A DNA stretch of 64,000 nt, from the NCBI GenBank assembly GCA_963710755.1, contig CAVQBK010000002.1, positions 32,001-96,000 on the forward strand, in the 5' to 3' direction. Source of the stretch: an uncultured bacterium. Lineage in GTDB: Bacteria > Oederibacteriota > JAAXVQ01 > JAUVAV01. The position numbers and the translations under genes are program-made. The notes under the pieces are model-generated. The model did not search any database. It was not told where the DNA came from and was given only the letters and a program-made list of their open reading frames with translations. Numbering within the stretch: position 1 is the stretch's first letter; the number at the start of each line of letters is the position of its first letter. This document shows positions 7,951-62,547 of the stretch, one piece after another.

Positions 7951-8212
7951 TATTTTCACCTTCTTCAACATAAACTGGTGCCTTGATAGGTTCCCGTTCC
8001 TCCCTGGAACTTGACCCAGAGATGGTCGGCACTATAAATTTAAAATTCGTCCCATTTCAAATTACCTGGTGACTTGTTGCTTAAAGCCGTCTCGTCCAAT
8101 TGAGGTGCCTAGCCGGTCGGGGTCACAAGGCAATTTAATTTTGGCACTTGTCCCTGGCCTTGGCAAGGGCTTTCTATCCAGTTCTTATTGTAAAAAGGGC
8201 AATTTTCCCATG

Positions 8213-8338
8213 CCTTCTTTCCCGAATTGGGGGGAGAGGGTTGGGGTGCGGGGGTAAAAGACTTTATTTTTAAAAATAATATCTTACCTCTATTCCCTCG
8301 GGGTGCCTGTGACAAAGATATCTCCCAAGAGGAGAGGA
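8213..8338. repeat. degenerate REP-like palindromic pair (CCCTCTCCC...GGGAGAGGG-GGGGTG type)
   Basis: ccttctttcccgaattggggggagagggttggggtgcgggg, an AT spacer, then a decayed inverted copy cttacctctattccctc...tctcccaagaggagagga. Confidence 0.5.
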
Positions 8339-8569
8339 CTATTTTATTTAGATCGAAAAAACCTCTTTCCGCAACACAACCTATCTATTTATTTGACGAC
8401 TTCATCAGGATGTATTAAGACATGACGGGCTGGCTTTGAGGAGAGACGATAAAGAATAAGTGGTGGCCATCCGAAGATTTATGGTAATCTGAAAAGCGTC
8501 TTTATTTGGGCCTCATGGTTACCCATGGCGCCGGATTGGCTTGAATCAACCCCTCGACAGGAGATTTTC

Positions 8570-9376
8570 ATGACGTCCTCTTTGTCCACCTATGATCAGT
8601 ATGGCGACCGGATTGAAATCATTGGTTATGGTACCACCATACTGTCGGGCATGCTGTTTCTGACCTATTTCACCATGCTCTTTTTTTCCAAGACCGTCCA
8701 GGCCCAAAACAGTCTGGACAAATTGCTCATCCTATTTTTTTCATTACTGCTGTTCACCACTGGATTTTTTGTACCGCTCCATAAAAACCGGGCCCGCCTG
8801 CTGCACCGTACGCTTTTTTTGCTTCTCGGCTCATTTTCCTTTTTTGATTTCTTTGACAAAGGCACCTGGTATTTTGGGGTACTTTTTGCTTACACCCTGT
8901 ATGGGTACTGGGTTCTCGGCCATCCCATGGCGATCCGGTTTTTCCGTGCTTTGAAACCAAGAGAAAAGCCTTTACAAAAGCACAGCGGCTGGATCATGGC
9001 TCACCTTTCCATCCAGACCATGCTGGTGCTGATCTTCTTCTTGAAAGGATTGGTAGCACTGATTAATGACGCCACTGGCACCAGCCTCAGTCAGGGTATG
9101 GGTTATTTAACCCTGGCCCTGTTTTTATCGGTCCTCCTCTGGGGACTGCGCCGGTTAAAACCTTGGGCGCGCTGGCTGATTATTATTTATAGTGCCGCCT
9201 TCTTTTTAGTGCTCTTCCCCAGATCTCTGAGCGACCAGGTGCAGAACTATCTGGAATATTGGAAGGCGCTGTTCATGGCAGGCTATTATTTAAGCCTGTG
9301 CTTGTTCTTTAGTTTCGCCCCTTCAGTCAAAGCTCTGTTCCAAGGCCGTCCGGCATTTCCCGGAAAGTCCTCCTAA
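8570..9376 (+). CDS. hypothetical multi-pass membrane protein, apparently two related 4-TM halves
   Basis: About 8 hydrophobic segments; HKNRARLL vs LKPWARWL and HPMAIRFF vs APSVKALF; AGGAG before ATG 8570. Confidence 0.7.
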   Translation: MTSSLSTYDQYGDRIEIIGYGTTILSGMLFLTYFTMLFFSKTVQAQNSLDKLLILFFSLLLFTTGFFVPLHKNRARLLHRTLFLLLGSFSFFDFFDKGTWYFGVLFAYTLYGYWVLGHPMAIRFFRALKPREKPLQKHSGWIMAHLSIQTMLVLIFFLKGLVALINDATGTSLSQGMGYLTLALFLSVLLWGLRRLKPWARWLIIIYSAAFFLVLFPRSLSDQVQNYLEYWKALFMAGYYLSLCLFFSFAPSVKALFQGRPAFPGKSS

Positions 9377-23026: not shown

Positions 23027-25703
23027 ACTGATCGCGCTCCGTTACCAATTTTAATAGGTCATTATTAAATAACACATTCTTGCCTATTTCATACTGCAAT
23101 TTCAAGGTTTCCTGGCCCCCTCGAGAAATATCCCTTCCCACTTCCAAATCAATTTTATCCAACAGGCTCTCCATGCCGCTTTTCATGCCCAACCAATTGG
23201 CCAAAGCTTGGCGGCTTAAATACCAGGCTGTATTCAAACCTGTTTGCAAAGCTATCTTCCGGCTGTTGGCCTGCGCCGGTGTTTGACCGGACAGCACCAG
23301 CAAAACCAGCTGGTCTTCCGGCAGTACCGGTTGAGAATTAAATAAGATTTGCGGTTTGGCGGTGGTGCCGCTGATGGTGACATTAATGTCATAGCCCCGC
23401 ATACGGCCTGTACCATTTAGGGCCAGCGTGATAAGTCCTGGCTGCGCCGGATCAAAACGCAACAACCCATTGGTTACGGTAAGCCGGCCAGCCGGCAAGA
23501 AGGCTTCAGCTTGATCCACATAGACAACGCCTTCCAATAAAGGCGTCTGCCCCGTACCCCTCAAGGTCAAGGCGCTGCGTAATTGACCTTTAACCAAATT
23601 GGCATCCACATAAAATGGGACTTGGTTTTTAATAGTAACATCAAAACGCATGGTGCTAAAGATGGGTCCTGGCAGGGAAAAAAGCGTGAAGACCGGGCCG
23701 GGCAAAGGGGTGTTTTGCCCTAAAAAACCGAGGACATCCAGAGGCTGCCAGTAGCGCCCTTCCGTAATCGTCAGTTGCCCTTTGACCAGCAGTACTTGCA
23801 GTGGCCCGGTAATGGACAGGGCTACATTGGAACGGACATTGGTCACATTATTTCGCCAGAGCAAAACATTTTCACCGTTCACTTGCACACTTAACATTAT
23901 GGCTTGTCCCCATTGAACCTGGCCCGATAGGCTCAGCGCTCCGCCGCCCAACCGGCCGTTAGCAGGATTAAGCGTCAGTTGCCCGTCATGCCAATCAAAA
24001 TTCAAGACTGGAAAGGTCGCCTGCTGGTTGGGTGATAAGCTTATGGTCACTTTTTTCAACCGGGCCCCGCCTTTTCCGGAAAGGCGTTGTTTAGCCAGCA
24101 GGCCTTCAAAAGTTGCGTTTAAATGTTCTGCACGTAAAATCAGCTTCCCCCCCGGCGCACGATAGGCTGGTTCCTTGATCTCCAAATTAGTATTAACCCC
24201 GCCCTTGGTCAAGCTGCCGTTATAATCCATGCTGCCCGAAGCGATACCATCCCACCCCGGTTGCGCCAACAGTCCGGCCAACGGTTCCAGGGCCAGGGTG
24301 TGCATGGTTAATGTCAGTTGAACCTGTGCATGGTCATGATCCGTCATCCATGACCATGGATTAAATTGCAGGTGCGTAATCTCCAGATCGCCTTCCGGTC
24401 CCAAGTTCATCTGGCCGGCGACCGTCAATTCGCCGTTCTTTTGCAGTTGCCCTTCCATTGTAAAGTGATGAGTAAGCGGCTTCGCCCATTGTGGCTTCCA
24501 GCCCAGGGACCGGATCAATCCCGGCAGATCATTGGATTCTACCTTCAAATGTCCGCTCATATGGTCAGGCCATGATTGGTCATTGGCATATTTTTTAAAT
24601 GTCCCAGGCCACTGCCAGTTGCCCAGTTCTACCCGCGTATGCCCCTGTTCCAGAATCGCATGGGACATCTGCCAGGATCGGCCCTTCTTTTCGATGGCCA
24701 TATCGGCCCTATCGACTGGACGTCCCAAGATCCTTCCCTGACGCCACTCTAACTGCATTCGGATCTGCGCTTTTTCCCAGTTCCAACTTGTCATTTGAAG
24801 CTGCCCTTGCAAATTCACCCTTCCTTGAAGGTTTACAGGTGCCAGCCAGTTGAACATATCCGCTTCGGTCACTTGATTGATAGTGGCCTTCGCCTGTGCA
24901 GTTTGCCGCCGGTTGGTGATGGTCCCCGACGTTTCCAGCATCAGGTCAGTACTTTTCAAAGCAAATGTGAAGTTTCCCTGTTTATTAAATTCCCCGCCCA
25001 TACGCAGCCTCTGTCCCAAAGGTGATGACGGTGACAAGGTCAATTTATTAAATCGGATGGCATGATTGCTCCAGACAAGGGTAAAGGCCAATTGAAAATC
25101 ACGCTCCACCTTGTTCATGGCAATGTGCAGCTGGTCACTCTGGCCACTTATGGTTAAGGTATCCGCGTCAGCATTCGTGCCAAACCAACTGTTAAGGTGT
25201 AATTGTTGGACATTGATCTCAGGACTTTTAAAATTTAGAAGTCCATCATGTAAAATAATTTTCGGCCAGGCCCAAGGTCCGGCCCAGGGTTGGCCTACCC
25301 GGCGAGGATGGATTGATGGCTCCACCTGAATATCCACCTGCACACCAGTGGCCTCAATTTGAGAGTCGGTTATGATGGCATCAGCACCTTTAGTCCAGCG
25401 CGTCCAATCAGGACGGAAGATTATTTGGTGTGCTTGCAGCTTTTTTATCGGGCTTTTCGTATCAATTCCTTTCATGCTTAGGTCTATCACGATAATATGA
25501 TTCCAGTCCGGTATTTGGACAGCACGGAAGCTGACAGACTGGTGCAGAAGAACACGGGTGATCACAGGTAGAAAGTGGCCTACTATGGCTTCGCGCAGAG
25601 GCTGAGAGCTTAAACAAATGCTTATGCTCCCTGCGCCCACCAGCACCGGCACCATAACCCACAAAAGTATTTTAAAAAAGCTTTTGCTGTTTTTTTTAGC
25701 CAT
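22980..25703 (-). CDS. TamB-like translocation/assembly module protein
   Basis: N-terminal TM anchor, beta-rich body, C-terminal ISGTTAKPQILFNSQPVLPEDQLVLLVLSG (DUF490-type). Confidence 0.82.
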   Translation of the reverse strand: MAKKNSKSFFKILLWVMVPVLVGAGSISICLSSQPLREAIVGHFLPVITRVLLHQSVSFRAVQIPDWNHIIVIDLSMKGIDTKSPIKKLQAHQIIFRPDWTRWTKGADAIITDSQIEATGVQVDIQVEPSIHPRRVGQPWAGPWAWPKIILHDGLLNFKSPEINVQQLHLNSWFGTNADADTLTISGQSDQLHIAMNKVERDFQLAFTLVWSNHAIRFNKLTLSPSSPLGQRLRMGGEFNKQGNFTFALKSTDLMLETSGTITNRRQTAQAKATINQVTEADMFNWLAPVNLQGRVNLQGQLQMTSWNWEKAQIRMQLEWRQGRILGRPVDRADMAIEKKGRSWQMSHAILEQGHTRVELGNWQWPGTFKKYANDQSWPDHMSGHLKVESNDLPGLIRSLGWKPQWAKPLTHHFTMEGQLQKNGELTVAGQMNLGPEGDLEITHLQFNPWSWMTDHDHAQVQLTLTMHTLALEPLAGLLAQPGWDGIASGSMDYNGSLTKGGVNTNLEIKEPAYRAPGGKLILRAEHLNATFEGLLAKQRLSGKGGARLKKVTISLSPNQQATFPVLNFDWHDGQLTLNPANGRLGGGALSLSGQVQWGQAIMLSVQVNGENVLLWRNNVTNVRSNVALSITGPLQVLLVKGQLTITEGRYWQPLDVLGFLGQNTPLPGPVFTLFSLPGPIFSTMRFDVTIKNQVPFYVDANLVKGQLRSALTLRGTGQTPLLEGVVYVDQAEAFLPAGRLTVTNGLLRFDPAQPGLITLALNGTGRMRGYDINVTISGTTAKPQILFNSQPVLPEDQLVLLVLSGQTPAQANSRKIALQTGLNTAWYLSRQALANWLGMKSGMESLLDKIDLEVGRDISRGGQETLKLQYEIGKNVLFNNDLLKLVTERDQYDDYNAGLRLVLELD

Positions 25704-25788
25704 GCCAACCTTCCCGCGCAGGTTTCTGCTCCTCAATACTGTCAAGGCACTCTTCGTATCGACTCTCCCGTCTTTTGCAGCAGCCTAT

Positions 25789-26076
25789 TCAGGTCCGATC
25801 CTCCAGCGCTTGGGGTTTGTAATGGAGCATGTCATCCTTGCCGGGATGGTCATCAATGGTCATGCTAATGAGCACCCGCGGTGCCTGGTCCAAGACCTGT
25901 TGGCGGCATTGATCTATCAGCGTCATTATGTCCTGCCACCTGCCCTCCACGACTGTGCCCATACTGCCGATTTGATGGGGCAGTCCACTATCCTTGATTA
26001 ATTTAGCCACCGCTTTTAAAAAACCACTTAAATGCTCACCCACACCGACCGGTGTAATTTGAAATTGAACCAACAT
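25789..26076 (-). CDS. MTH1187/DUF77 thiamine-binding family protein
   Basis: ITPVG...SGLPHQIGSMGTVVEG...RVLISMTIDDHPGK. Confidence 0.88.
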   Translation of the reverse strand: MLVQFQITPVGVGEHLSGFLKAVAKLIKDSGLPHQIGSMGTVVEGRWQDIMTLIDQCRQQVLDQAPRVLISMTIDDHPGKDDMLHYKPQALEDRT

Positions 26077-26342
26077 CACGCTACCCCCCCCACGCCTTTC
26101 CCTGCCACTTAGGAGTTTGACGGTTCTCTTGTTAATGCCAGTCACAAAGAAAAACTTTACATTTTTGACCTTTTTAACAAGGCTTCTGTTCCATCCCGTT
26201 ATGCTGTTACACTATCTTACCTCTCTTCGAGATCATTTTAACTAGTACCTGGTTTTATCTTCTATTTCACTGCACACCTTTTTCCGGCTTTTGGGTTCTA
26301 ACTAAAAGAGAGTGATTATGTCATATAAAAGGAGGCGCTGAA

Positions 26343-27071
26343 ATGAAACATACTTATCACCAAAACAGCAGAAGCAAAACCTTAACACGTCCTCCGATTA
26401 TGGCGGCAGGACGTTCTCCAGAGGAGACACAAGCATTGGAAGTGGTGATCAAATGCGATTCCTATGGGAGCGTGGAAACATTGACCGCCGTGCTCTCTAC
26501 TCTTCCCCATCTGAAAATCATTCAGAGCGGGATTGGCCCCATCAACCATTCCGATCTGCTTATGGCCAAGACTGGCAGTGGTCTTATCATTGGATTTAAT
26601 ACAAGGGTTCCTATATCTTTACAGACCGAAGTGGCCAAGGAACATCTGGAGGTGAGGTTGTATGGGGTTATTTATACGTTGCTCGCTGACGTAAAAACCA
26701 TCCTGGCCTCCCAGGTCCAGCAACACCGTGAGCGCAAGGAATCCATCCTTGGCTTGGCCAAGGTCATCCGCTTGTTTCCCGGCAGCCGTCATGGGTTGAT
26801 CTTGGGGTGCGAAGTGCTGCAAGGAAACCTGGTCCTGGGCAAGCCATTGCGCATTATCGCCCCGGTGGGCGTTATTTACCAAGGTAAGCTTGACTCCATG
26901 CATATCGAAAAAGAAGCCGTTAAAAAAGCCGGCGTCCGCCAACAGGTGGGCATTAAGATCAATCATTTCGAGCAGGTTCATCCGGGTGACCTAATCGAAT
27001 GTTTCGAGCCGGTCGCTCAAGTTCGCCACAACGTCTGGCATCCCGTCGGACAAGTGCTAACCATCACTTAA
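26343..27071 (+). CDS. stand-alone IF2 C-terminal (C1+C2) domain protein lacking the GTPase domain
   Basis: VVIKCDSYGSVE, SGIGPINHSD, IIGFN, VIY, GCEVLQG, IYQG, GDLIECF align by eye with IF2 LKADVQGSVE/GVGGITETD/VGFN/VIY/GCMV/IYEG/GDVIEVF; own AGGAGG; no P-loop. Confidence 0.85.
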   Translation: MKHTYHQNSRSKTLTRPPIMAAGRSPEETQALEVVIKCDSYGSVETLTAVLSTLPHLKIIQSGIGPINHSDLLMAKTGSGLIIGFNTRVPISLQTEVAKEHLEVRLYGVIYTLLADVKTILASQVQQHRERKESILGLAKVIRLFPGSRHGLILGCEVLQGNLVLGKPLRIIAPVGVIYQGKLDSMHIEKEAVKKAGVRQQVGIKINHFEQVHPGDLIECFEPVAQVRHNVWHPVGQVLTIT

Positions 27072-27115
27072 CCTACTCCTCAGCACTTCTAAAACAGTTC
27101 AAGCGGCCGTGGTAA

Positions 27116-27631
27116 TCAGGGATGCGTTTCAAGGCGCTGCTTTAAAAGCAGAGCCAGATTTTCCATTTCAAAATAAACATTATCCATTTTGAAGTAATAA
27201 TGGGCATACATGGGTATAATTCTGACAATGGTGTATAAAGGATCTTCAGGACCGTTTTGATAGTAACGCTTCCAGAATTTTCTCCACAATTTTTGTTTGA
27301 TCAGCTGATTTTCCACCACTTCCGCTTTTCCGCCAATCATAAAGCCTTCCGCATTCTGAGGAAGGCAATAATAGGCTGAAACCATGGGATTATGTTTGAT
27401 ATGGCTTATTTTGGGGGAATCACTATCTGTATTAAAATAGATCCTGCCCCCATAGAAATCACCTTCCAGGTCTCCCAACAGATCGCGGTACTCCGCCTCA
27501 TTCCACATGTTCAGCAAAGCCCTGACGTGGGGACGGCCTTGAGGATCAATAGTGCCAAGATAGAATACCTTGGTTTTGCGCTGTAAGGCCTGTCCTTTTT
27601 TCCAGGCCTCCTCCATGGTCATTGCACTCAT
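27116..27631 (-). CDS. pyridoxamine 5'-phosphate oxidase-like / general stress protein 26 family
   Basis: LGTIDPQGRPHVR, YFNT...SPK, NPMVS, YYQNGPEDP. Confidence 0.85.
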   Translation of the reverse strand: MSAMTMEEAWKKGQALQRKTKVFYLGTIDPQGRPHVRALLNMWNEAEYRDLLGDLEGDFYGGRIYFNTDSDSPKISHIKHNPMVSAYYCLPQNAEGFMIGGKAEVVENQLIKQKLWRKFWKRYYQNGPEDPLYTIVRIIPMYAHYYFKMDNVYFEMENLALLLKQRLETHP

Positions 27632-27643
27632 TCGTCCACCTCC

Positions 27644-29044
27644 CTAAGTCGTACTGGGGTTAAGCTCTCCCTGTTGTTTTTGCCATAGCTGGTGGAGACT
27701 GAAAATGACGTCATAGCTTAATGAAGGAAAAGACCATACCATTTCACTAAGCTGGGTAATAGTCAACTTCTGTTTAATGGCTAAAGCCAATAGGTTGATG
27801 ACTTCGTAAGCATCGTGACCCAATAAATGAGCACCCAGCAAACGTCCGCTTGGTTGTTCCACCACTATTTTATAAAAAGCATGTTGGTACCCAAGCCGTT
27901 GAGTTTCATGCCGACTTGAGGCGTCAATGCTGAGCACCATTTTCCCCTCCAACGCACGCTTATCATCGTCTGGCTTAAGTCCCACGGCGGCCAAAACGGG
28001 CTGGGTAAACACGCCTGAAGGAATAACGTCATAATCCGGTGTGCAGTCATTGCCATGGAGAAGATTGCAGGCAATGACCCTACTTTCCATCTCTGCTACT
28101 GGGGTCAATTGCCTCGATCCGGGCAAAACATCACCACAAGCATAAACCGCTGGATTGCTGGTACTTTGCAGATATTGATTAACTTCAATGCCTTGATTGT
28201 TGACCTTAACTTGTCCGGCCTGAAGATCTAATTCCTGCACATCCGGTATCCGGCCGGTAGTGTTTACCACCACCTCAGCCTCTATTTTTTGTTGTTTTTG
28301 CGGACCGGCCAGAGTAAGCACTATCTGGTCCTTTTCCTTATCCTTTTCCAAAGCGATAACCTTGGCCATGGTTTGGATTTCAATACCAGTATTTCGGCTG
28401 GCCTGATTCAGTTTATCCACCACTTCTTTATCAAAAGCACGCAAGGTTTGTTCCGTGGCTTCTAAAATGACCGCGTCACCACCAGCATGCTTGACCACAT
28501 GGGCCAGTTCATAGGCAATATAGCCGCCGCCAATAAACACCACTTTTCTGGGTAAAGTCTGAAGATTTAGAAATCCATCGCTGCTTAGGGCCAGCTCTTT
28601 TCCCGGTATCTCAAGGGCCGTGGGCATGGACCCCGTTCCTATCAAAATATGCTCTGCCTGCAGGAGTTGCTCATTGACTGTTATTTCGTGCGGTCCAGTG
28701 AAATGGGCGGTGCCGGAGTAATAATCAATACCCAGAGTTCTCAGCTTATTTTCTGTGGTTTGGGGGATGGTTTCCATCATTTTTTCTTTAAAATGCATGG
28801 CCCCGTGCCAATCCATTTGGCTGCCGTAACTCATACCTTTGCCTTCCATGTTGCCCAATCGTTCCACCAACTCCGCCAAACCCGTCAGGACTCGTTTGGG
28901 ATTGCATCCTCGCAGGGCGCAGGTCCCTCCTAGTGGCCGTTTCTCCACCAAGGCCACTTTCCAGCCGGCCTTGCTGCAAATCTCAGCAGCGGTCATGCCT
29001 GCTTCTCCCGAACCGATCGAAATAAGATCATATTTTTTCATCAT
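27644..29044 (-). CDS. pyridine nucleotide-disulfide oxidoreductase (glutathione reductase-like)
   Basis: IGSGEAG, GGTCALRGCNP (CxxxxC), IGGGYIAYE, YACGD, LTPVA. Confidence 0.9.
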   Translation of the reverse strand: MMKKYDLISIGSGEAGMTAAEICSKAGWKVALVEKRPLGGTCALRGCNPKRVLTGLAELVERLGNMEGKGMSYGSQMDWHGAMHFKEKMMETIPQTTENKLRTLGIDYYSGTAHFTGPHEITVNEQLLQAEHILIGTGSMPTALEIPGKELALSSDGFLNLQTLPRKVVFIGGGYIAYELAHVVKHAGGDAVILEATEQTLRAFDKEVVDKLNQASRNTGIEIQTMAKVIALEKDKEKDQIVLTLAGPQKQQKIEAEVVVNTTGRIPDVQELDLQAGQVKVNNQGIEVNQYLQSTSNPAVYACGDVLPGSRQLTPVAEMESRVIACNLLHGNDCTPDYDVIPSGVFTQPVLAAVGLKPDDDKRALEGKMVLSIDASSRHETQRLGYQHAFYKIVVEQPSGRLLGAHLLGHDAYEVINLLALAIKQKLTITQLSEMVWSFPSLSYDVIFSLHQLWQKQQGELNPSTT

Positions 29045-34176: not shown

Positions 34177-34314
34177 TTAATTTTCCTTTGCCACCACAAA
34201 TTCTTTGCGGTCTTTAAATTCTTCCCGTTTACCCTTATTCCATTGCTGAACAGGTCTGAAATAACCAACAACCCGTGAATAAACTTCGGTTTTTTCCATG
34301 CATTTTTTTGCCAT
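34177..34314 (-). CDS. 45-aa stand-alone NrdD glycyl-radical peptide
   Basis: Hand translation MAKKCMEKTEVYSRVVGYFRPVQQWNKGKREEFKDRKEFVVAKEN*; TAATG overlap with the nrdD stop; stop 3 bp before nrdG; below the ORF-track size cutoff. Confidence 0.92.
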   Translation of the reverse strand: MAKKCMEKTEVYSRVVGYFRPVQQWNKGKREEFKDRKEFVVAKEN

Positions 34315-36416
34315 TATACCATGACCCCCTTCTCCTGCTGATGATTTTTAATGGGCATCGATTCCACCACCACACCGGATTGTTCCTGGGAATGGTGGCG
34401 GCTCTCGCCGGATTCCTGGAAGGCTGCTTCTTCTTTATCGTAAGGACAAACGTGATGCTCCCCGGCAATATACCCATGGACCGGACAAATGGAGAAGGTA
34501 GGCGTTATAGTGAAATAAGGCAGATGATAGTTTTCCGCGATACGGCGTACCAAGGCCTTGCAGCTCTCCGGATCATCGATACTCTCCCCCAGAAAGATAT
34601 GCAGTACCGTGCCGCCCGTATATTTGGTTTGCAGGGGATCCTGATGTTCCAGGGCTTCAAAGACATCCTCTGTGGCGCCCACCGGCAACTGGGTGGAATT
34701 GGTGTAATAAGGCTCTTCCTGGCCGGAAGCAATGATATCCGGAAATTCCTGACGATCCAGACGGGCAAAACGATAAGAGGTGCCTTCCCCGGGGGTGGCT
34801 TCCAAGTTGAAAAAATCGCCTTCTTGCTCCTGATATTCCTGAATACGTTGACGCATGATGTTCAGGGTTTTTTCCGCCAAAGCCTTGCCCTCAGGGGACA
34901 TGATGTCCTTGCCCAGTAAATTCAGACCGGCTTCATGCATGCCGTTGAGCCCGATGGTGGAAAAATGATTGGCCCAATACCTTCCGGTACGCTGTTTGAC
35001 CGCAGAGAGATAATATTTGGAATAGGGATAAAGGTTGTTCTCCGTATAGCGTTCCAGAATCTTCCGCTTGATTTGCAAGCTTTCCTTGGCAATATCCATA
35101 AGGTTGAGCACACGGGTATGAAATTCCTCTTCCGTGGACGAAAGATAAGCAGCTCTGACCAGATTGATGGTTACCACACCCAAGCTTCCGGTTAAAGGAT
35201 TGGCGCCAAAGAGCCCGCCGCCCCGTTTACGCAATTCGCGGTTATCCAGTCTCAAGCGGCAGCACATAGACCGGGCGTCTTCTGGATCCATGTCACTGTT
35301 GATGAAGTTGGCAAAATAGGGAATACCGTATTTGGCGGTCATGCCCATTATTTCTTTCATAATAGGCGCTTCCCAGTTGAAATCAGCGGAGAGGTTGTAG
35401 GTAGGAATGGGGAAGGTGAAAATCCGGCCCTGGGCATCGCCCTTCATCATAACCTCGCAAAAAGCACGGTTAATCATGTCCATTTCCTTTTGGAAATCCC
35501 CGTAGGTGTCCTCTTGCATGTCGCCGCCAATAATGACGGGTTCATTTTTCATATTCTTGGGAACTTGTAAATCAAGGGTGATATTGGTAAAGGGCGTTTG
35601 GAAACCCACACGGGTGGGTACATTGACATTAAAAATGAATTCCTGCATGCTCTGGACCACATCATCGTAACTGAGACCGTCCTTGGCAACAAAAGGTGCC
35701 AAATAGGTATCAAAATTGGAAAAAGCCTGAGCGCCGGCAGCCTCACCCTGTAGGGTGAAAAAGAAATTACAAATCTGCCCCAGGACACTGCGGAAATGCT
35801 TGGGCGGTTTGCTCTCAGTTTTGCCGTAAGCGCCGCGCAGGCCTTTTAAAAGCAGGTCCCTCAGATCCCAACCGCAACAATAACCTGACAACGAACCTAA
35901 ATCATGAATATGAATATCACCATTGAGGTGGGCATTGCGGACTTTTTCCGAGTAGACTTCTTCCAGCCAATATTGGGAAACCAGAATGGCCGTAATGTGG
36001 TTGTTCATTCCCTGCAGGGAATAGCTCATGTTGGAATTTTCTTTGATACGCCAGTCATTTTTACCCAGATAATTGTCGATCAATTCGTTGGCTGAAGAAA
36101 AGAGCTCCTGGGTTTGACGCAGTTTGCTGTGCTGAGCCCGGTAAAGGATATAGGCCTTGGAGACATCCTGATAGCCTTCATCCATCAAGGTGGTTTCCAC
36201 GATATCCTGAACATTTTCAACCGTGGGAATATGGTCTTGCTTGTAAACCGCTTTTAGAATATTGCAGACCCGGCGCGTTACAGCTTGGGCCTGTTCCAGG
36301 CGATGCTTGCCCACGGCAGCCATGGCCCGGTAAACAGCATTAACTATCTTCTGTTCGTCAAAATGAACAAGCCGTCCGTCACGTTTTCTAATCTGAGTGA
36401 TATTCTGCTGCTGCAT
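34314..36416 (-). CDS. nrdD: class III ribonucleoside-triphosphate reductase catalytic subunit (ATP cone; lacks the C-terminal glycyl loop)
   Basis: IRKRDG ATP cone, HIHDL, GYCCGW, AGAQ, TFPIPT, RSMCCRL, EATPGEG, YTGGTV, TPTFSICPVHGY...CPYD. Confidence 0.95.
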   Translation of the reverse strand: MQQQNITQIRKRDGRLVHFDEQKIVNAVYRAMAAVGKHRLEQAQAVTRRVCNILKAVYKQDHIPTVENVQDIVETTLMDEGYQDVSKAYILYRAQHSKLRQTQELFSSANELIDNYLGKNDWRIKENSNMSYSLQGMNNHITAILVSQYWLEEVYSEKVRNAHLNGDIHIHDLGSLSGYCCGWDLRDLLLKGLRGAYGKTESKPPKHFRSVLGQICNFFFTLQGEAAGAQAFSNFDTYLAPFVAKDGLSYDDVVQSMQEFIFNVNVPTRVGFQTPFTNITLDLQVPKNMKNEPVIIGGDMQEDTYGDFQKEMDMINRAFCEVMMKGDAQGRIFTFPIPTYNLSADFNWEAPIMKEIMGMTAKYGIPYFANFINSDMDPEDARSMCCRLRLDNRELRKRGGGLFGANPLTGSLGVVTINLVRAAYLSSTEEEFHTRVLNLMDIAKESLQIKRKILERYTENNLYPYSKYYLSAVKQRTGRYWANHFSTIGLNGMHEAGLNLLGKDIMSPEGKALAEKTLNIMRQRIQEYQEQEGDFFNLEATPGEGTSYRFARLDRQEFPDIIASGQEEPYYTNSTQLPVGATEDVFEALEHQDPLQTKYTGGTVLHIFLGESIDDPESCKALVRRIAENYHLPYFTITPTFSICPVHGYIAGEHHVCPYDKEEAAFQESGESRHHSQEQSGVVVESMPIKNHQQEKGVMV

Positions 36417-36510
36417 CAAAAAACGCCCCCCCACCCTCAAATTGTAGCCTTTACAGTTGTTTTCATGCGATTGCTTTCGTTTTTTTAATTGCAGTTGGTA
36501 AAATAGGAAA

Positions 36511-36791: not shown

Positions 36792-38213
36792 TTACTTGGG
36801 GGATGCTTTGGGGGTCCTCTTCTTCACACTTTTTTTAGTGGATTTTGACCTTGCAGTCTTGCTGGATTTTTTGGAGACTTTGGGGGTTACTTTTTTTCGG
36901 GCCGAACGTTTGGTGCTCACCTTTTTAGTGACTTTACCGGAACCAACGTTGGCGGTAGAGGCTGTCTTATCAAGCGTCGTTACTTTTTCCAGCGACCCTT
37001 GTTCCTGCTCTTTAACCGGCGGCATTGGCCGTTGCCCCAAAGACGGTTTACGGTCTTTTTGAAAAACAGTGTTCCCCGGCCGTTCAATAATCATGAGCCA
37101 TAGGGCGCCGCTTCCAAAAATCACCACCACCAAATTGATAAGGCTGTTTAGCAAGGGAATAAACCCAATCAAGGTTAATAAGGCCAGCCCAATGGCCATA
37201 CCCAGCATGAACTTGCCCGGTGTGCGATCACTGGCCTTAAAGATCTTCTGCCCCAACCATAAGGCAATACCCAGTTTGGAAAATACCAATAAGACCAGAT
37301 AAAAGAAGACGAGCACCAAAGCCAGCGGAATGCCGACAACCGTAATGAGAAGAATGATGGTTAAAACAGGCAACCCTAAAATTACAGCCAAGCCCCATCC
37401 CAAGGTGGGTAAAGGCTTGGTATTAATCAGATCGGTGTAGCGTTGACAGGCGCGCGGCCACAAGGCAATAACCAGGAGACCCACTGCCAGCAAGGCCAAA
37501 AACACGGTCAAGTTATAGACCAATGTAAATAGAAACCACCAATGACCAAGGTTAAAAAGCCAATTTTGAGAAGGCGCCGGTGGCAGGGATTTTTTCCAGG
37601 TGATAGTGCCTTTCACTTGTTGACTGAGCTTCGGCCCCAGCCGTTCGGGGGTACTGTAAGTTAAATGCCCGTAAATGCTGGCATTAGGTCCCAGGACCAG
37701 AGATTTGGTCTTGATGGTCACATCATTCATAAGGGTACCGTTCAAAATGATCTTTTCGCTGTTAATGGTAACCGGTCCCTGGATAACACCGTCAAGGATC
37801 GTGCTGCCGGCCAAAATAAAGGCATCACTGCCCACGGTGGCATCGCGGTGCAGCCTCAGTTCATTGCCGATAAACAGGAGGCTCCCAGAAACTTTAGCCG
37901 CCACCATGGCTTTGTTACCCATCAGGCGGAGATCATCGCCCACCTCACCCTTAATTTCTCCGTCGCTGACCAGCAGATTTAAATCCTGACCCACCACGCC
38001 CCAAAAAAAAGCGGTTCTGGCCACGGCCCATACATCCTGCAGGGCGCTGCCGTAAAAATTGATCAACTCTCCGGCCATGTACAAATCTTCGGTAATGATG
38101 TCTTGGCGTTCCACAATGATCTTTTCACCGTTTTTAAAGATCATGGCTCGATTGACCGCTGGCAGACACAGGCCAAAGACCAGCAATAACAGGATGGTCA
38201 TCGTTTTTTTCAT
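36792..38213 (-). CDS. membrane protein with bactofilin-like beta-helical repeats, about 5 TM helices and a K/S/R-rich tail
   Basis: Signal peptide; repeats EDLYMAG/QDVWAVA/DDLRLMG/SDAFILAG; TM block; KVTKKVSTKRSARKK tail. Confidence 0.75.
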   Translation of the reverse strand: MKKTMTILLLLVFGLCLPAVNRAMIFKNGEKIIVERQDIITEDLYMAGELINFYGSALQDVWAVARTAFFWGVVGQDLNLLVSDGEIKGEVGDDLRLMGNKAMVAAKVSGSLLFIGNELRLHRDATVGSDAFILAGSTILDGVIQGPVTINSEKIILNGTLMNDVTIKTKSLVLGPNASIYGHLTYSTPERLGPKLSQQVKGTITWKKSLPPAPSQNWLFNLGHWWFLFTLVYNLTVFLALLAVGLLVIALWPRACQRYTDLINTKPLPTLGWGLAVILGLPVLTIILLITVVGIPLALVLVFFYLVLLVFSKLGIALWLGQKIFKASDRTPGKFMLGMAIGLALLTLIGFIPLLNSLINLVVVIFGSGALWLMIIERPGNTVFQKDRKPSLGQRPMPPVKEQEQGSLEKVTTLDKTASTANVGSGKVTKKVSTKRSARKKVTPKVSKKSSKTARSKSTKKSVKKRTPKASPK

Positions 38214-38300
38214 GGTCACGCTCCTTGGGACCGACGTTGGCTTGCCGGGGCTGATTGCCCGGATGGCCACATTATTCCACAGGCCCCAGCGTTTATAAAT

Positions 38301-49920: not shown

Positions 49921-51537
49921 TTAAAACAGGATACTCAGTTCAAAGGTCATGCGCCAAGTTAGAGAAGATAAGGTGAGAGGTGTATTAAAAAAAGTTACTG
50001 ATGGTGAGTGAAAAGAATCGTCAACCATGATGCCGGCACTCCAATAATGCCCTGCCGGACCGCCAAAGCCCAGGCTTAAACCAGCGCTGCCCACACCAGC
50101 CTGGCCGTGGTACTGCGCTTCCCCCAAGTTTAAATGCTGCCAGCGATACCCAGGACCAGCCATCACATTGATATAAATCTTTTGCTCCTCCGTCATAGTC
50201 CAGGCCTGGCTGATTACCACATTAACACGGCTGGTTTGTTCTGATTGCCAACCATTATCGTGCAATGGTCCGTCTTGGGCATTTTTAAACAGCGGATTGA
50301 AATATAAATCCAATTGTGGCCGCAGTCCCGCGGCTAAGCTGTAAGTGCCTGATTGGTAATTTAAAAATTCCAGTTCATAGCCTAAGCTTAATCCTGCGTT
50401 GGTCAGAGAACTATCCTGAACCCAACCCGTGGAAGCCAAGGCATCGGCCAAGCCCCGAAGCTGCAGAAAAGGTCCAATGATCAACCGTTGATCTGGCGGC
50501 TTGGCCCGGACCGGCGCCAAGGACCAGGATTTGAAACGACCAGGTGCGATCAAGTTATTTTGGAAATGATCATCCAGGAATCTCTTCTCTTCAGCCCGGT
50601 TGCGGCGTTGGGCCATGACCCAGGTACGTGCTGCACTGCCTTGGTGATTCATGATCAGCAGGTTGGAAAATATCAAGGCTGCCGTTATATTTTCCGTTCG
50701 GGCCTGCTGTTGCGCAGCCATCGTGAACCCGATGGTGCCTGCCCAAAATAACAATTCATAATACAGCTGACTGCCCGCTTCCCCCATGCCAGGTTCCAAT
50801 TGCTCTTCTCCCCAACCGGGCATTACCGCGGAAGCCAAGCTTAACCGGCGGGGAGAAAAATAAGGAACTTCCATGGCTTCAAAACTTTCCCGGGCAGCGG
50901 GATGATCCCGATCCTGCTGCCATAAATGGTAAAAGCCTTCCGTATTGCCCTGATGATCCTGAAAATCCTGCCAGGCCAGAGCATAGGCCGCAAAGCCGCT
51001 GAAGGGCGACTGAGAGGCCTGGGCTAAAAAGTTCTTCAGATCTTGCCGCCGGGCACCGGCATGGTGGCGCCAAAACAATTCGGCCAGAGCAGCCAATTGT
51101 TGAAAATAGACCCTATCAGCTTGCCGGGGATGTTGCTTAAAAAAAACAAAGCTGTCCTTGACCAATCGGGAAAACAACGGATCTGGTTCAAACAGACGTA
51201 GTCTCCCGTTAATGTTGGCGTTCACATCAAGCAATGGCAAAAGGCTGCTGGCAGGAAAATAGGTTTGAAGATAAAACTGCAATTGTTGCGCCTGATCCAT
51301 ACGCTCCTGTGCCTGCATTACCGCGACCGTTACCATGATCTCCAAATCCTCCAACCGCCCTGATTTTAAGGGCGGCTGAAGCGGTTGGTAACGGTCATAG
51401 AACAGTTGAAGGCTTTGGGGTAAGGATGGACAAGATACAGTGGCCCCAGCCCATGCTGCCATACCCACGGAAAACAGCAATAACAGCATAATTGCCCAAT
51501 ACCTGCGGTTAACCACCGCACGGCCCAGTGGCCACAT
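49921..51537 (-). CDS. hypothetical exported protein; helical N-half, possible outer-membrane beta-barrel C-half
   Basis: Signal peptide (AAWA), SAVMPGWG motif followed by hydrophobic helices, amphipathic beta strands, terminal Phe; start uncertain. Confidence 0.65.
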   Translation of the reverse strand: MWPLGRAVVNRRYWAIMLLLLFSVGMAAWAGATVSCPSLPQSLQLFYDRYQPLQPPLKSGRLEDLEIMVTVAVMQAQERMDQAQQLQFYLQTYFPASSLLPLLDVNANINGRLRLFEPDPLFSRLVKDSFVFFKQHPRQADRVYFQQLAALAELFWRHHAGARRQDLKNFLAQASQSPFSGFAAYALAWQDFQDHQGNTEGFYHLWQQDRDHPAARESFEAMEVPYFSPRRLSLASAVMPGWGEEQLEPGMGEAGSQLYYELLFWAGTIGFTMAAQQQARTENITAALIFSNLLIMNHQGSAARTWVMAQRRNRAEEKRFLDDHFQNNLIAPGRFKSWSLAPVRAKPPDQRLIIGPFLQLRGLADALASTGWVQDSSLTNAGLSLGYELEFLNYQSGTYSLAAGLRPQLDLYFNPLFKNAQDGPLHDNGWQSEQTSRVNVVISQAWTMTEEQKIYINVMAGPGYRWQHLNLGEAQYHGQAGVGSAGLSLGFGGPAGHYWSAGIMVDDSFHSPSVTFFNTPLTLSSLTWRMTFELSILF

Positions 51538-51791
51538 GGGTGTCCTTTGAGGTCGAGAATATAAAAACGTTGACTTAATCGACTTTTTCTTCAGGCTGGT
51601 TGGAAGTAGGGGTGACAGGATCATAGCGTTACCTGTATTCAGAATGACGTCCGGTCAAGATCACTGATTTTTTTCGAACCCTGCACAAGCGGCATTGGCC
51701 GTACAACCGTTCTCTAGGACTTCAGGCCGCAGCAGACAGGCCGTCTTTTTTCCAGAAAAATCTATCCGGCTTGCCATTCCCATCATAATCA

Positions 51792-59475: not shown

Positions 59476-62400
59476 TTACTTTTGGCCGGGCTTGCCGGCC
59501 TCAGATTTGGCTGCAGGCGCCTGACTGAGTTCAGGAATATCTTTAACCGCCAACACCTGCAGGCTTTTCCATTGCCACCCGCCGGCAGGCATGACTAAAG
59601 TAAGCTGCTTGAGGCTGCCGGCCCAAACCCAGGCAGGCAGGCTGCCCACCCGAAAGACATAGGTCTCTTCCTGGCCGCTGCCTTTTAAGAGGAATTGCAA
59701 GCCGTCATGATCCGACGCTTTGCCCCATAACAGCTTGGCGGTCCGGCCCTGAAGCCGGGGCGATGCCCTCAGTGTCAGTCTGAGCACATTACCATCGGCT
59801 GCCTTATTGGCTTTGGCATTCATCACCAGGCTGACCTGCCCCACACCATCAGCCACTTCCACACCCTGGGCGCTGGCCGTCACTGTCAGCCCATGCGCAT
59901 CCACGTCACTTTTATCTTTCACGATATACTGATCTACGCCATTACCCTGACCGCTGGCATATTTGGCCTCCTGCCCCATGGTCAGCGGCATATAGGCCAG
60001 GGACACCATCCGTTTCATGGCCTGTACGGCCTGAGGTTCAGGGTTGAGCTCACCATCCCGTGGGAGCATGATAACCGTCTGACCAATTTTTTTGATGGGC
60101 ACATATTTTTTAAGAAGATATTCGGAAAGTGCGTACTGCCGGACTTCACAGGGCAGGCCATCAAGTCCTGCTTCCCCAAGGGGCCGGCCATCAGCCACCA
60201 CCATTTTGACCTCATTCAAGTTCAGGGCACGAATGGCTGCCAGCTGCTGTTCAAAGGTGGCAATGGAGACCGTGGCCAGCGCTCTGGTCACCGGCCGGCG
60301 CGGCACCAGGAAATAAAGCAGCGGCTGGTTGGAAAAATCAAAGAAGGATTCCGCGCTGCCCACCTGCTCGTTCATATAACTTACCAGTTCATCAATCTCC
60401 CGGGCCTGGTTGGGCTGGAGGAACACATTACCCAGCAGCAGGCTTTTGGGCTTGACCAGGCCATCCACAGTGATAACTGTTTTTTGCCCAAAGCCTTCGG
60501 CCAGGGTTTTTAAATCGATGCGCCCTGCCTGAGGAATAAGCAGCAACGGCAGCAGAGCCGTCATGACCAAGCCCTTTAAGCGGGCCTGTCTGATGGTCAG
60601 CCGGAATAGATAGAACGCCGCCAGCATGGCCGCAATCGGCAGGGTTTCCAATAAAAAGGTATAGTCGCTGCGGTCTAAAAAGCGTACCCAATACAGGGTG
60701 GTAATCACCGTCAACAGCAGGATATTCCAGGGTATGGTACCGTGCTGCTTGCCGGCAAATATGGCTTTGAGGCTCTGTAGCGCGCCTATGGCAATCATGG
60801 CCGGCGGCAGGGCAAAGATCAACCACTGCATTAAACTGGGGTGATCTCCCAAGCCCGGCATAGGTAGCCCGAACACCGCACCATAATTATTCATAACCCA
60901 GGCAAAATTATCAAAATAAGCGCCCAAGCTGCCGCTCATGGCCAGATATAAAAACCAAGGCAGCAGTCCCGCCAAGGTAGCACCCAGGTACACCGCCAGT
61001 CCAGTTAAGCGCTTTTTAAGCGGTTCCCGATCAACCACCACGAAAACCACCACTAGGGTTAATTGTCCTGCCAATGCCATAATGCCGGCAGTATAGGAGG
61101 CAATGACCGACAAGGCGGTCATAAGCCCGGAAAAAATTAAAAGCAGCCAGCGATTGGATTGCAAATAGAACAAGGTGAAAATAAACCCGATCAAGGGAAA
61201 CAAAAAACGGGTATAGGGAATCATGCCCAGAGCGCCGGTCAGCATGGTCAAGGCCAATAACAAGGCCCACAGCCAGGGCATGCAAAAAATGGCAAATACA
61301 TAAATGGCGATCAACCCCAAAGGCGCCAAGTAGGAAAGCATTAAACGATAGGCTTCCAAGGTGCCGCCAAACCAATTGACAGCTGCCAATCCGCTTAACG
61401 CATCGGCAATAAAGCCATGGCGGAATAAAATGTCCTTAAACGGCAACCGTCCCATGAGAATGGCTTGGGCCGCGCCCAGGGGCTCCCCTTCCCGGAACAA
61501 CGCCAAGGGTCCCAACAGGTGATGACCGCTGAAAGCTGCGCCCATAGGCCAATAAGCCACAGCGTACAACAACAAGGGAATGGGGATGATCAACATCAAA
61601 GCCCTAAACACTTCTTCCCAAGCCGGCACCATTTCCACCTTTTTTTTGCGCAGGCTCAGCAACACCAGCGCCAAAATCACCACAGCCGCCAAAGAAGCCA
61701 CTCCTACTAAGGTAGGCATGAGCCAGGCCACTTTGGTGACGGCCACCACTTTGCCATAGGCGGTATAGGTTAATCCGCCCAAGGTTTGCAGCGGCAAGAT
61801 CGCCAGAGGCATGGCCACAAAGGCCAGTCCTACATAAACTTGGTCAAAGGTGAGTTTGGAAAAAAACAAAGCCAGGAGACCTGCCAGCAGCATGATCACG
61901 ATCCACACGGCCAGACCCACACCGAGGCTGAACCACAACCCCAGACTGGAAAACAAGCCCGGACCTGTAAGCGCCTGCAGAAACCAGCCTACCCCTGCAC
62001 CCAACACGATGATACTGCCATGGGTGAACAAGGACGCGGGCTGATAACGGTTCTCCGTGGGAAAAGCAAAATAAATTTTACGTTTGTCTTTTTTCTCCAG
62101 AATAGCCAGCAGGCTGAATCCCAAGAGCAGCAAAAGACCTGCGGCCAAAGGCGCGATCATCAAGCCCTGATTGGTGCTCAGCATGGTGATATAAGCTAGA
62201 AAAGGCGCAAATATCACGGTGGATCGTTTGAGCGCCACAGCAGCCGGCATAACCCCCAGAACACGTTGCCATTGCGCCATCATCATCCAGCCCCACTGGC
62301 CCAAGAGCACGCCCGCCACGCCACCGGCTACGATAGCCAGGGCGCGATAAACTTCTCCCGGTGTTTTCAGTCCCATGGTCAGATAGCCCACTACATTAAA

Positions 62401-62547
62401 TGACGGTAACCCCCCGGGGAAAAAGCGGCTCAATATAAAATAAGTCACCGTCATGCCGGCCAGCATAGAACCCAATAGCATTAATCCTCGATGCAGGACC
62501 AGGTCTTCTTCATTCATCATCTGTTTTACTTGTGCCAAATCTGCCAT
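59476..62547 (-). CDS. large polytopic membrane protein, probable GT-C (ArnT/PMT-like) glycosyltransferase
   Basis: About 20 hydrophobic segments; internal FREGEPLGAAQAILMGRLPFKDILFRHG resembles the EG...GxxPYxD loop of GT-C enzymes; soluble C-terminal domain with QPLLYFL. Confidence 0.65.
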   Translation of the reverse strand: MADLAQVKQMMNEEDLVLHRGLMLLGSMLAGMTVTYFILSRFFPGGLPSFNVVGYLTMGLKTPGEVYRALAIVAGGVAGVLLGQWGWMMMAQWQRVLGVMPAAVALKRSTVIFAPFLAYITMLSTNQGLMIAPLAAGLLLLLGFSLLAILEKKDKRKIYFAFPTENRYQPASLFTHGSIIVLGAGVGWFLQALTGPGLFSSLGLWFSLGVGLAVWIVIMLLAGLLALFFSKLTFDQVYVGLAFVAMPLAILPLQTLGGLTYTAYGKVVAVTKVAWLMPTLVGVASLAAVVILALVLLSLRKKKVEMVPAWEEVFRALMLIIPIPLLLYAVAYWPMGAAFSGHHLLGPLALFREGEPLGAAQAILMGRLPFKDILFRHGFIADALSGLAAVNWFGGTLEAYRLMLSYLAPLGLIAIYVFAIFCMPWLWALLLALTMLTGALGMIPYTRFLFPLIGFIFTLFYLQSNRWLLLIFSGLMTALSVIASYTAGIMALAGQLTLVVVFVVVDREPLKKRLTGLAVYLGATLAGLLPWFLYLAMSGSLGAYFDNFAWVMNNYGAVFGLPMPGLGDHPSLMQWLIFALPPAMIAIGALQSLKAIFAGKQHGTIPWNILLLTVITTLYWVRFLDRSDYTFLLETLPIAAMLAAFYLFRLTIRQARLKGLVMTALLPLLLIPQAGRIDLKTLAEGFGQKTVITVDGLVKPKSLLLGNVFLQPNQAREIDELVSYMNEQVGSAESFFDFSNQPLLYFLVPRRPVTRALATVSIATFEQQLAAIRALNLNEVKMVVADGRPLGEAGLDGLPCEVRQYALSEYLLKKYVPIKKIGQTVIMLPRDGELNPEPQAVQAMKRMVSLAYMPLTMGQEAKYASGQGNGVDQYIVKDKSDVDAHGLTVTASAQGVEVADGVGQVSLVMNAKANKAADGNVLRLTLRASPRLQGRTAKLLWGKASDHDGLQFLLKGSGQEETYVFRVGSLPAWVWAGSLKQLTLVMPAGGWQWKSLQVLAVKDIPELSQAPAAKSEAGKPGQK

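Follow-up and report, generated by a model that had tools for sequence, protein, structure and literature searches.

A stand-alone IF2 C1-C2 paralogue without a GTPase domain and with a remodelled fMet pocket

The locus and its product

The window (the whole stretch of 64,000 nucleotides analysed here, from an uncultured bacterium) contains at 26343..27071 of the plus strand an unbroken open reading frame (ORF) of 242 amino acids, which starts with ATG and ends with a TAA included in these coordinates. ORF, profile and structure evidence identify its product as a paralogue of the C1-C2 region of the translation initiation factor IF2. A Shine-Dalgarno sequence, AGGAGG (26330..26335, plus strand), is found 7 nt 5′ of the ATG, and the same distance is kept in the congeneric genome G001, where the motif reads GGGAGGG. 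The intact 242-residue frame with its own AGGAGG had been reported in the initial annotation of this DNA, and it is confirmed here with a spacing of 7 nt. The gene sits on a contig of 262 kb, and both its GC content (50.6%) and its GC3 (57.6%) agree with those of the neighbouring host genes.

The paralogue is monocistronic. Upstream, across a spacer of 197 bp, lies a divergent Thiamine_BP gene, and its downstream neighbour is a convergent PNPOx-like gene. Two intergenic blocks, TTTTTGACCTTTT and CTTCTGTTCC (26163..26192, no strand assigned), are conserved between the window genome and G001, and could be a promoter or operator of either divergent gene. A sigma-70 scan of the spacer gave no site, an Rfam scan of positions 25000-28000 at E up to 1 gave no match, and terminator-like matches around the gene do not exceed the expectation from shuffled sequence. 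A search of sequencing runs gave no RNA run and a single DNA run, with a 0.20 share of words.

An antisense ORF of 120 amino acids is also present within the gene (26619..26981, minus strand), and comparable antisense ORFs cluster over 29 loci; most probably it only shadows the conserved sense frame and is no gene of its own. Elsewhere in the window, three long ORFs on the minus strand (59476..62547, 49921..51624 and 36792..38270, of 1023, 567 and 492 amino acids) gave no match to Pfam at E up to 1e-6. The window also encodes an NrdD anaerobic ribonucleotide reductase with an ATP-cone (34314..36440, minus strand), which fits an anaerobic or facultative lifestyle, as in other carriers of the family described below.

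The protein can be divided into four parts, all of them encoded on the plus strand. Residues 1-30 (26343..26432) form a basic N-terminal tail predicted to be disordered (pLDDT 46-53), a feature also reflected in the tail statistics of the family. Residues 31-125 (26433..26717) comprise the C1 domain and helix H12, residues 132-223 (26736..27011) correspond to the C2 β-barrel, and residues 224-242 (27012..27068) make up a family-specific C-terminal tail. This tail holds the motif W232-x-P-x-G (the W232 codon is 27036-27038) and a predicted extra β-strand at 238-241.

C1 is recognised by the Pfam model PF11987 (IF-2 C1) on residues 26-118, with 78.1 bits against a gathering threshold of 27, and residues 151-218 gave weak Pfam matches, below cut-off, to a barrel of the EF-Tu D2/D4 type. 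The NCBIfam equivalog for bacterial IF2 (TIGR00487) scores 129.9 bits, well under its cut-off of 424.4, and aligns over its positions 379-580 of 587 only, so that the protein does not qualify as a complete IF2. The top PDB sequence match is E. coli IF2 (3jcj_f, residues 677-883, 2.9e-30), and the structures of isolated C1 (1z9b) and isolated C2 (1d1n, 8.4e-11) are each matched separately. The AlphaFold2 model built from the family alignment has a mean pLDDT of 88.9, and consists of a disordered stretch (1-30), C1 and H12 (strands and helices at 32-125, pLDDT 96-98), a barrel (133-223) and the extra strand (238-241). The model strands at 133-223 and the 1d1n match identify after H12 a six-stranded barrel of the type of IF2 C2 and EF-Tu domain 2. 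With Foldseek, the top matches are the C-terminal halves of IF2, mtIF2 and aIF5B (E 4.6e-17, TMq 0.60-0.63). The tail strand is predicted at a pLDDT of about 94-95 both in the window protein and, independently, in the orthologue from Desulforhabdus.

No Pfam or NCBIfam match to the GTPase domain (G2) or to domain II/G3 was obtained in the paralogue. Moreover, a tblastn search of the 64-kb window with residues 1-550 of the organism's own IF2 revealed no remnant of a G domain (best E = 1.9, none near 26 kb). It had been proposed that the ORF is limited to IF2 domains C1 and C2 and that no G-domain remnant lies upstream; the former is supported by Pfam, TIGR00487, the PDB match, AlphaFold2 and Foldseek alike, and the latter holds over the whole window.

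IF2 is universal, and it is normally a single-copy, multi-domain GTPase. The assembly, which is 98% complete, contains exactly two PF11987 matches, the paralogue and an IF2 of 763 amino acids that reaches 810.3 bits on TIGR00487. The gene of the latter, infB, is encoded on another contig between nusA and rbfA-nrnA, and its product carries SLRRFKEDV and MECGI. A full-length infB elsewhere in the genome, the first check suggested for this locus, has thus been found in the nusA-infB-rbfA operon, and the position of the paralogue away from nusA and rbfA is confirmed, as these genes flank the true infB and the paralogue is flanked by the Thiamine_BP and PNPOx-like genes. The identity of the paralogue to the C region of its own IF2 is 32-34%. 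All five other carrier genomes tested also encode a full-length infB. A def-fmt operon is encoded in the genome, which means that fMet-tRNA exists in this organism.

Two further observations were made around the true infB. Upstream of nusA lies the 3′ end of a PolC-type DNA polymerase III gene (L107, 1..468; NF001688 positions 1315-1444 of 1445, 7.9e-35), in the same genome that encodes the TamA/TamB outer-membrane machinery. Between infB and rbfA there is an ORF of 128 amino acids (L107, 5679..6065, plus strand) with no NCBIfam match at E up to 1e-5.

Distribution and evolution of the family

A word-indexed search of 5.8 billion clusters retrieved, from 676 candidates, 11 proteins at E up to 0.001, i.e., the query and 10 homologues of 192-253 amino acids with 37-58% identity. 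When 1.84 billion representatives were searched exhaustively with a profile, 10,548 matches reached E up to 0.001, and almost all of these are IF2. Nineteen of these rows score at least 207 bits, and 18 of them (all but P0026) were examined: 17 are short proteins with the family motifs, two of which have garbled C-termini, and the exception is P0028 (377 aa), part of a canonical IF2 in which a segment is duplicated. In this search, full-length IF2 reaches 201 bits at most. The family is defined here by a length of 230-255 amino acids, the motifs LKCD-x-x-G, S-[LM]-[HQ]-[IV]-[ED], Q-[VA]-G and GDL-x-EC, and a W-x-P-x-G tail, and the window protein shows all six features. Neither Pfam nor NCBIfam holds a dedicated model for a stand-alone IF2-C family.

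Some related proteins fall outside this definition. P0030 (652 aa) and P0028 are canonical IF2 proteins in which a C1 or C1-C2 segment occurs twice internally (two matched stretches), and this may reflect either true tandem duplication or chimeric assembly. P0046, P0061, P0104 and P0116 (213-264 aa) are short proteins of the C1-C2 type in which the RFKD and ECG motifs of IF2 have their canonical form; they may be infB fragments at contig ends or a second stand-alone form.

In a scan of one genome per species, 80 loci were kept, comprising 34 family members (38-58% identity, E up to 8e-45) and 46 loci of ordinary IF2 (identity 35% or less). The carriers are mainly bacteria of the sulfate-reducer type. 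Most of the family loci (25/34) are labelled Thermodesulfobacteriota, including Syntrophobacteraceae (among them the isolate Desulforhabdus sp. TSK), Desulfobacteraceae, Desulfobulbia, Desulfatiglandales and others; eight bear old Proteobacteria or Deltaproteobacteria labels, and one belongs to the window's congener. As a lead only, the ESM Atlas contains 'IF-2 family' clusters of 226-244 amino acids (74, 54 and 207 members) from Thermodesulfobacteriota and Nitrospirota. The frame is intact in 33 of the 34 loci, with lengths of 233-339 amino acids and one frame of 518, whose extension overlaps a gene on the opposite strand and has no similarity to IF2. The sole broken copy (L045, about 8000-8650) is interrupted by an in-frame stop, and the beginning of its C1 is missing.

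Within the host phylum, the paralogue is found in two of the 99 genomes examined, which represent one of 62 genera, and this patchy distribution suggests lateral acquisition. No family member was found in phage and plasmid collections, where every match shows 35% identity or less and lies under an annotated infB or in an unannotated record, and neither PADLOC nor PHROGs gave a match for the paralogue; a mobile or defence origin has been rejected on these grounds.

The phylogeny was inferred with a quick IQ-TREE run (LG+C20) on 55 family rows and 59 IF2 C regions, those of the hosts' own IF2 included. The family occupies one side of a branch against IF2 with an SH-aLRT of 100, and the window protein falls inside the family branch. 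The two groups lie about 1.7 substitutions per site apart, and the family is sister to no particular IF2 lineage in this tree. In an AU test, the placement of the window and G001 proteins as sister to all other family rows was not rejected (p-AU 0.884), and the log-likelihood of the constrained tree exceeded that of the quick free tree by 38.5 units. Since this basal placement is possible, the tree names no donor; neither the AU test nor GC/GC3 identifies a donor or a date for any lateral transfer.

Nei-Gojobori dN/dS values range from 0.07 to 0.25 in 15 of 16 pairs, one pair being saturated, and the paralogue family is therefore under purifying selection. The window genome and G001 share 58% identity in the paralogue and 88% in IF2, which together with the dN/dS values indicates a constrained but fast-evolving protein. 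The monophyly and the dN/dS ratio of truncated homologues had been put forward as checks on the initial annotation, and they gave a single branch against IF2 and values far from 1. Its argument against simple decay is borne out by these two results and by the loci in other species.

In G001 the block is fully syntenic, with TamA, TamB, Thiamine_BP, the intact paralogue, the PNPOx-like gene (85%) and an oxidoreductase (72%). The PNPOx-like and TamB neighbours were not recognisable, at the thresholds used, in other genera of the taxonomic family. Across the family loci, the immediate neighbours are heterogeneous (AzlD and PAS kinases are among them), and the only recurrent one is proC, which is convergent downstream in 11 of 31 loci, all from one clade. 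No conserved partner gene or operon partner was found across these loci. The 'stress-gene context' that had been read into this locus did not survive the comparison, as neighbours vary among the 34 loci and redox or stress genes such as those for Ni-SOD, Hsp20 and hemerythrin are single cases. In eight Syntrophobacter-type loci (L017-L020, L024, L027), a divergent ORF of 255-288 amino acids with no Pfam match is conserved upstream of the paralogue on the opposite strand. Another upstream ORF (184-191 aa, same strand, no Pfam match) is common to L029, L036 and L037.

The fMet pocket and the basic tails

The pocket that holds fMet-A76 in E. coli IF2 consists, in the passages of PMC4783127 that describe it, of F804, F809, I812, C815, S844, R846, R847, F848, K849, E860, C861 and G862, with fMet cradled by R847 and F848; the same passages place Y772 near the sarcin-ricin loop (SRL). 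The assignment of SLRRFK and ECG as motifs of this pocket, made in the initial annotation, agrees with this description. For Geobacillus stearothermophilus (Gst), section 15 of PMC4611024 gives R654, Q655, F657, G667 and E713. According to the part of PMC8709274 dealing with this mutant, R847G greatly reduces the affinity for fMet-tRNA.

These residues were mapped on the paralogue by alignment with E. coli IF2, and the corresponding columns were inspected over the 55 family and 59 IF2 rows. The window protein retains six of the 12 pocket residues (F145, I153, C156, S185, K190 and G203) and differs at the other six (H150, H187, I188, E189, Q201 and V202), so that it does not carry the pocket of IF2. 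The changes are concentrated in two motifs: SMHIEK (26895..26912, plus strand), which replaces SLRRFK (E. coli S844-K849, in the β4-β5 loop), and QVG (26943..26951, plus strand), which replaces the IF2-invariant ECG (E860-G862). Both readings, like that of the added tail around W232, had been made correctly from the sequence alone.

The replacements are conserved in the family columns, and the remodelling of the pocket first noticed in the window protein is thus a property of the whole group. R847 (R in 86% of IF2 rows) is I in 84%, V in 11% and M in 5% of family rows; F848 (F, 78%) is E in 78%; and R846 (K/R, 99%) is H in 67% and Q in 31%. At the second motif, E860 and C861, each present in 100% of IF2 rows, are Q and V, respectively, each in 84% of family rows. 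R801, the equivalent of Gst R654 (R/K in 83% of IF2 rows), is I in 95% of the family. F804, I812, C815, S844 and G862 are retained across the family, and K849 partly. Several further positions on the side of the pocket have become hydrophobic, with L/I in place of A at residue 154 and V/L in place of R at residue 165. As judged from these alignments, the residues that cradle formyl-methionine are exchanged for other, conserved residues across the family. In C1, residue 69 shows a charge reversal from E (88% of IF2 rows) to K (84% of family rows), and Y111, the equivalent of the SRL-proximal Y772, is Y in 89% of family rows.

The family also differs from IF2 in its termini and charge. Among the 44 full-length rows, the N-terminal tail has a median of 30 amino acids, a net charge of +3 and two His residues. 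The C-terminal tail has a median of 18 amino acids and a net charge of +3, with W-x-P in 48 of 55 family rows. The median pI of the core is near-neutral (7.86) in the family and acidic (5.40) in IF2, and the net charge of C2 is +3 versus 0.

Relationship to known factors and candidate function

The closest known system is the C-terminal half of IF2 itself (C1-H12-C2, domains III-IV; E. coli 677-883, PDB 3jcj and 6o7k), which has both folds in the same order and with the same linker length, and is about 32-35% identical to the paralogue. The core residues K37, D39, G42, G65, D71, A75, F85, Y107, Y111, F145, G155, G161, G203, G215, D216 and E219 are common to both. Unlike IF2, the paralogue has no N, G1, G2 or G3 domains, is encoded outside the nusA-infB-rbfA operon, and has half of the pocket residues replaced (6/12); it carries instead a basic N-terminal tail and a W-x-P-x-G C-terminal tail, has a higher core pI (7.9 versus 5.4), and evolves much faster.

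Recombinant IF2C and IF2-C2 fragments of G. stearothermophilus provide a second comparison, since in them C1-C2 or C2 folds and binds the acceptor end of tRNA without the rest of IF2 (PMC4611024). These fragments were made in the laboratory and have a canonical pocket, whereas the paralogue is encoded by a natural gene, has an altered pocket and carries additional tails. Homologous folds are also found in domains III-IV of aIF5B/eIF5B (Foldseek E 7e-13 to 1e-9), where, as stated in section 15 of PMC4611024, domain IV continues past the barrel with an added C-terminal part and deals with Met-tRNAi that is not formylated. However, aIF5B is a GTPase that adds two α-helices, and the paralogue adds a short strand and has no G domain. 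N-terminally shortened IF2 isoforms, which originate from internal starts in infB, coexist with full-length IF2. In contrast to the paralogue, a separate and diverged gene without GTPase, these isoforms keep the GTPase and come from infB itself. Full-text searches of the literature, and a 2026 preprint on IF2 extensions, gave no published description of a GTPase-less IF2 C1-C2 paralogue, although supplements may hold relevant tables. On the evidence of its sequence, the gene is functional and belongs to an as yet undescribed family of free-standing IF2 C1-C2 proteins; its product lacks a GTPase and coexists with a normal IF2.

As to its role, the reading that we favour, at somewhat less than even chances, is that of an RNA-binding accessory factor that would dock at the IF2 C1-C2 site on the 50S subunit or the 70S ribosome and modulate or block initiation without recognising fMet-tRNA as IF2 does. 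The paralogue would no longer recognise fMet-tRNA in the IF2 manner, but it would dock on the large subunit or the 70S ribosome where C1 of IF2 sits, near the sarcin-ricin loop, with C2 placed near H89, H71, uL16 and the peptidyl-transferase centre (PTC). RNA binding would be expected because both the tails and C2 are basic, and the tails might stand in for the ribosome affinity that G2 and G3 give to IF2. Occupancy of this corridor could hinder IF2 and other translational GTPases, or could hold a tRNA 3′ end, so that the protein would modulate or silence initiation and not bring it about. Isolated C2 is enough for tRNA binding (PMC4611024), and the family has nevertheless retained C1, H12, the C1-C2 spacing and the SRL-proximal tyrosine, which points to ribosome docking; the tyrosine and other shared residues may, however, be purely structural. 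Three observations count against a ribosome ligand: the net charge of C1 is not raised (-3 in the family versus -2 in IF2), no translation gene is a conserved neighbour across the family loci, and such fast evolution is unusual for a core ribosome ligand. A complex prediction of uL16 (21-row alignment) with residues 126-242 of the paralogue gave a score of 0.00, the mark being 0.32, and carries no weight for or against docking.

Protein-protein contacts rather than RNA binding, either by docking in trans on G2/G3 of the host IF2 to regulate it or in a role outside translation, are a rather unlikely explanation. C1 of ribosome-bound IF2 touches G2 near switch II (PMC4611024), the conserved E to K reversal at residue 69 lies in C1, and IF2 itself has been linked to replication restart; the topic of IF2 and genome integrity is addressed in PMC3334882. 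Nevertheless, a partner gene is absent from the neighbourhood, and basic disordered tails are more typical of nucleic-acid binders.

A lower probability is given to binding, off the ribosome, of the 3′ end of a tRNA that is not fMet-tRNA (Met-tRNA without the formyl group, a different aminoacyl-tRNA or peptidyl-tRNA, or deacylated tRNA), which the paralogue would carry, protect or sense. The A76/acyl pocket is half retained, the conserved replacements suit a new ligand better than a dead site, C2 is more basic than that of IF2, and isolated C2 alone binds acceptor ends (PMC4611024). This proposal leaves the strong retention of C1 and H12 unexplained, and the pocket has become more hydrophobic (I142, L/I154, V/L165, I188 and V202) in proteins that also acquired a Trp tail, a coincidence which suggests that the tail may itself fill the pocket.

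That the protein still binds fMet-tRNA, competing with IF2 as a sequestering factor, is very improbable. Its fold is that of the IF2 C region, isolated IF2C matches whole IF2 in the strength of its fMet-tRNA binding (PMC4611024), and the def-fmt operon implies that the ligand is available; however, R847, whose loss strongly lowers the affinity in the mutant described in PMC8709274, is I, V or M in 100% of family rows, F848 has given way to an acidic residue, and the IF2-invariant E860 and C861 are replaced. Finally, the view that the gene is a remnant without function (a piece of a gene, a partial copy of infB made recently, or an error of the assembly) can practically be dismissed, for although L045 proves that family copies can decay, the ORF is intact with a ribosome-binding site and is only distantly similar to its own IF2, the syntenic G001 orthologue and 33 of 34 loci are intact, and the low dN/dS, the monophyly of the family, the host-like GC/GC3 and the 262-kb contig all speak against it.

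A hibernation-type factor was among the candidate roles put forward in the initial annotation, beside a competitor of IF2 and a binder of another aminoacyl- or peptidyl-tRNA. Factors of the hibernation or silencing class occupy idle ribosomes, where they obstruct the sites of factors or tRNA, and their induction occurs in stationary phase or under stress. Balon is a ribosome hibernation factor derived from a translation factor, a paralogue that lost a catalytic or substrate motif and gained basic extensions. It offers an analogy in the way of working and not a homology. Going beyond the favoured accessory-factor reading, a more specific proposal can be advanced, tentatively and with less confidence: the family might constitute a new class of GTPase-less, IF2-derived ribosome ligands of anaerobic bacteria of the Thermodesulfobacteriota type, in which C1-C2 would occupy the corridor from the SRL to the PTC of the 50S subunit or 70S ribosome, with a remodelled, Trp-capped pocket that would either be without fMet or hold another acyl-tRNA end, so that initiation would be switched off or re-routed under particular conditions.

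The carriers include a named isolate, Desulforhabdus sp. TSK, and this makes the hypothesis open to direct testing. A conserved natural protein made only of the tRNA-holding half of IF2, in which the fMet-specific residues are systematically exchanged, would be a ready-made probe of how C1 and C2 act apart from GTP hydrolysis. It could also bring to light a further level at which initiation is controlled, or a novel factor that binds ribosomes or tRNA, in a large group of environmentally important anaerobes.
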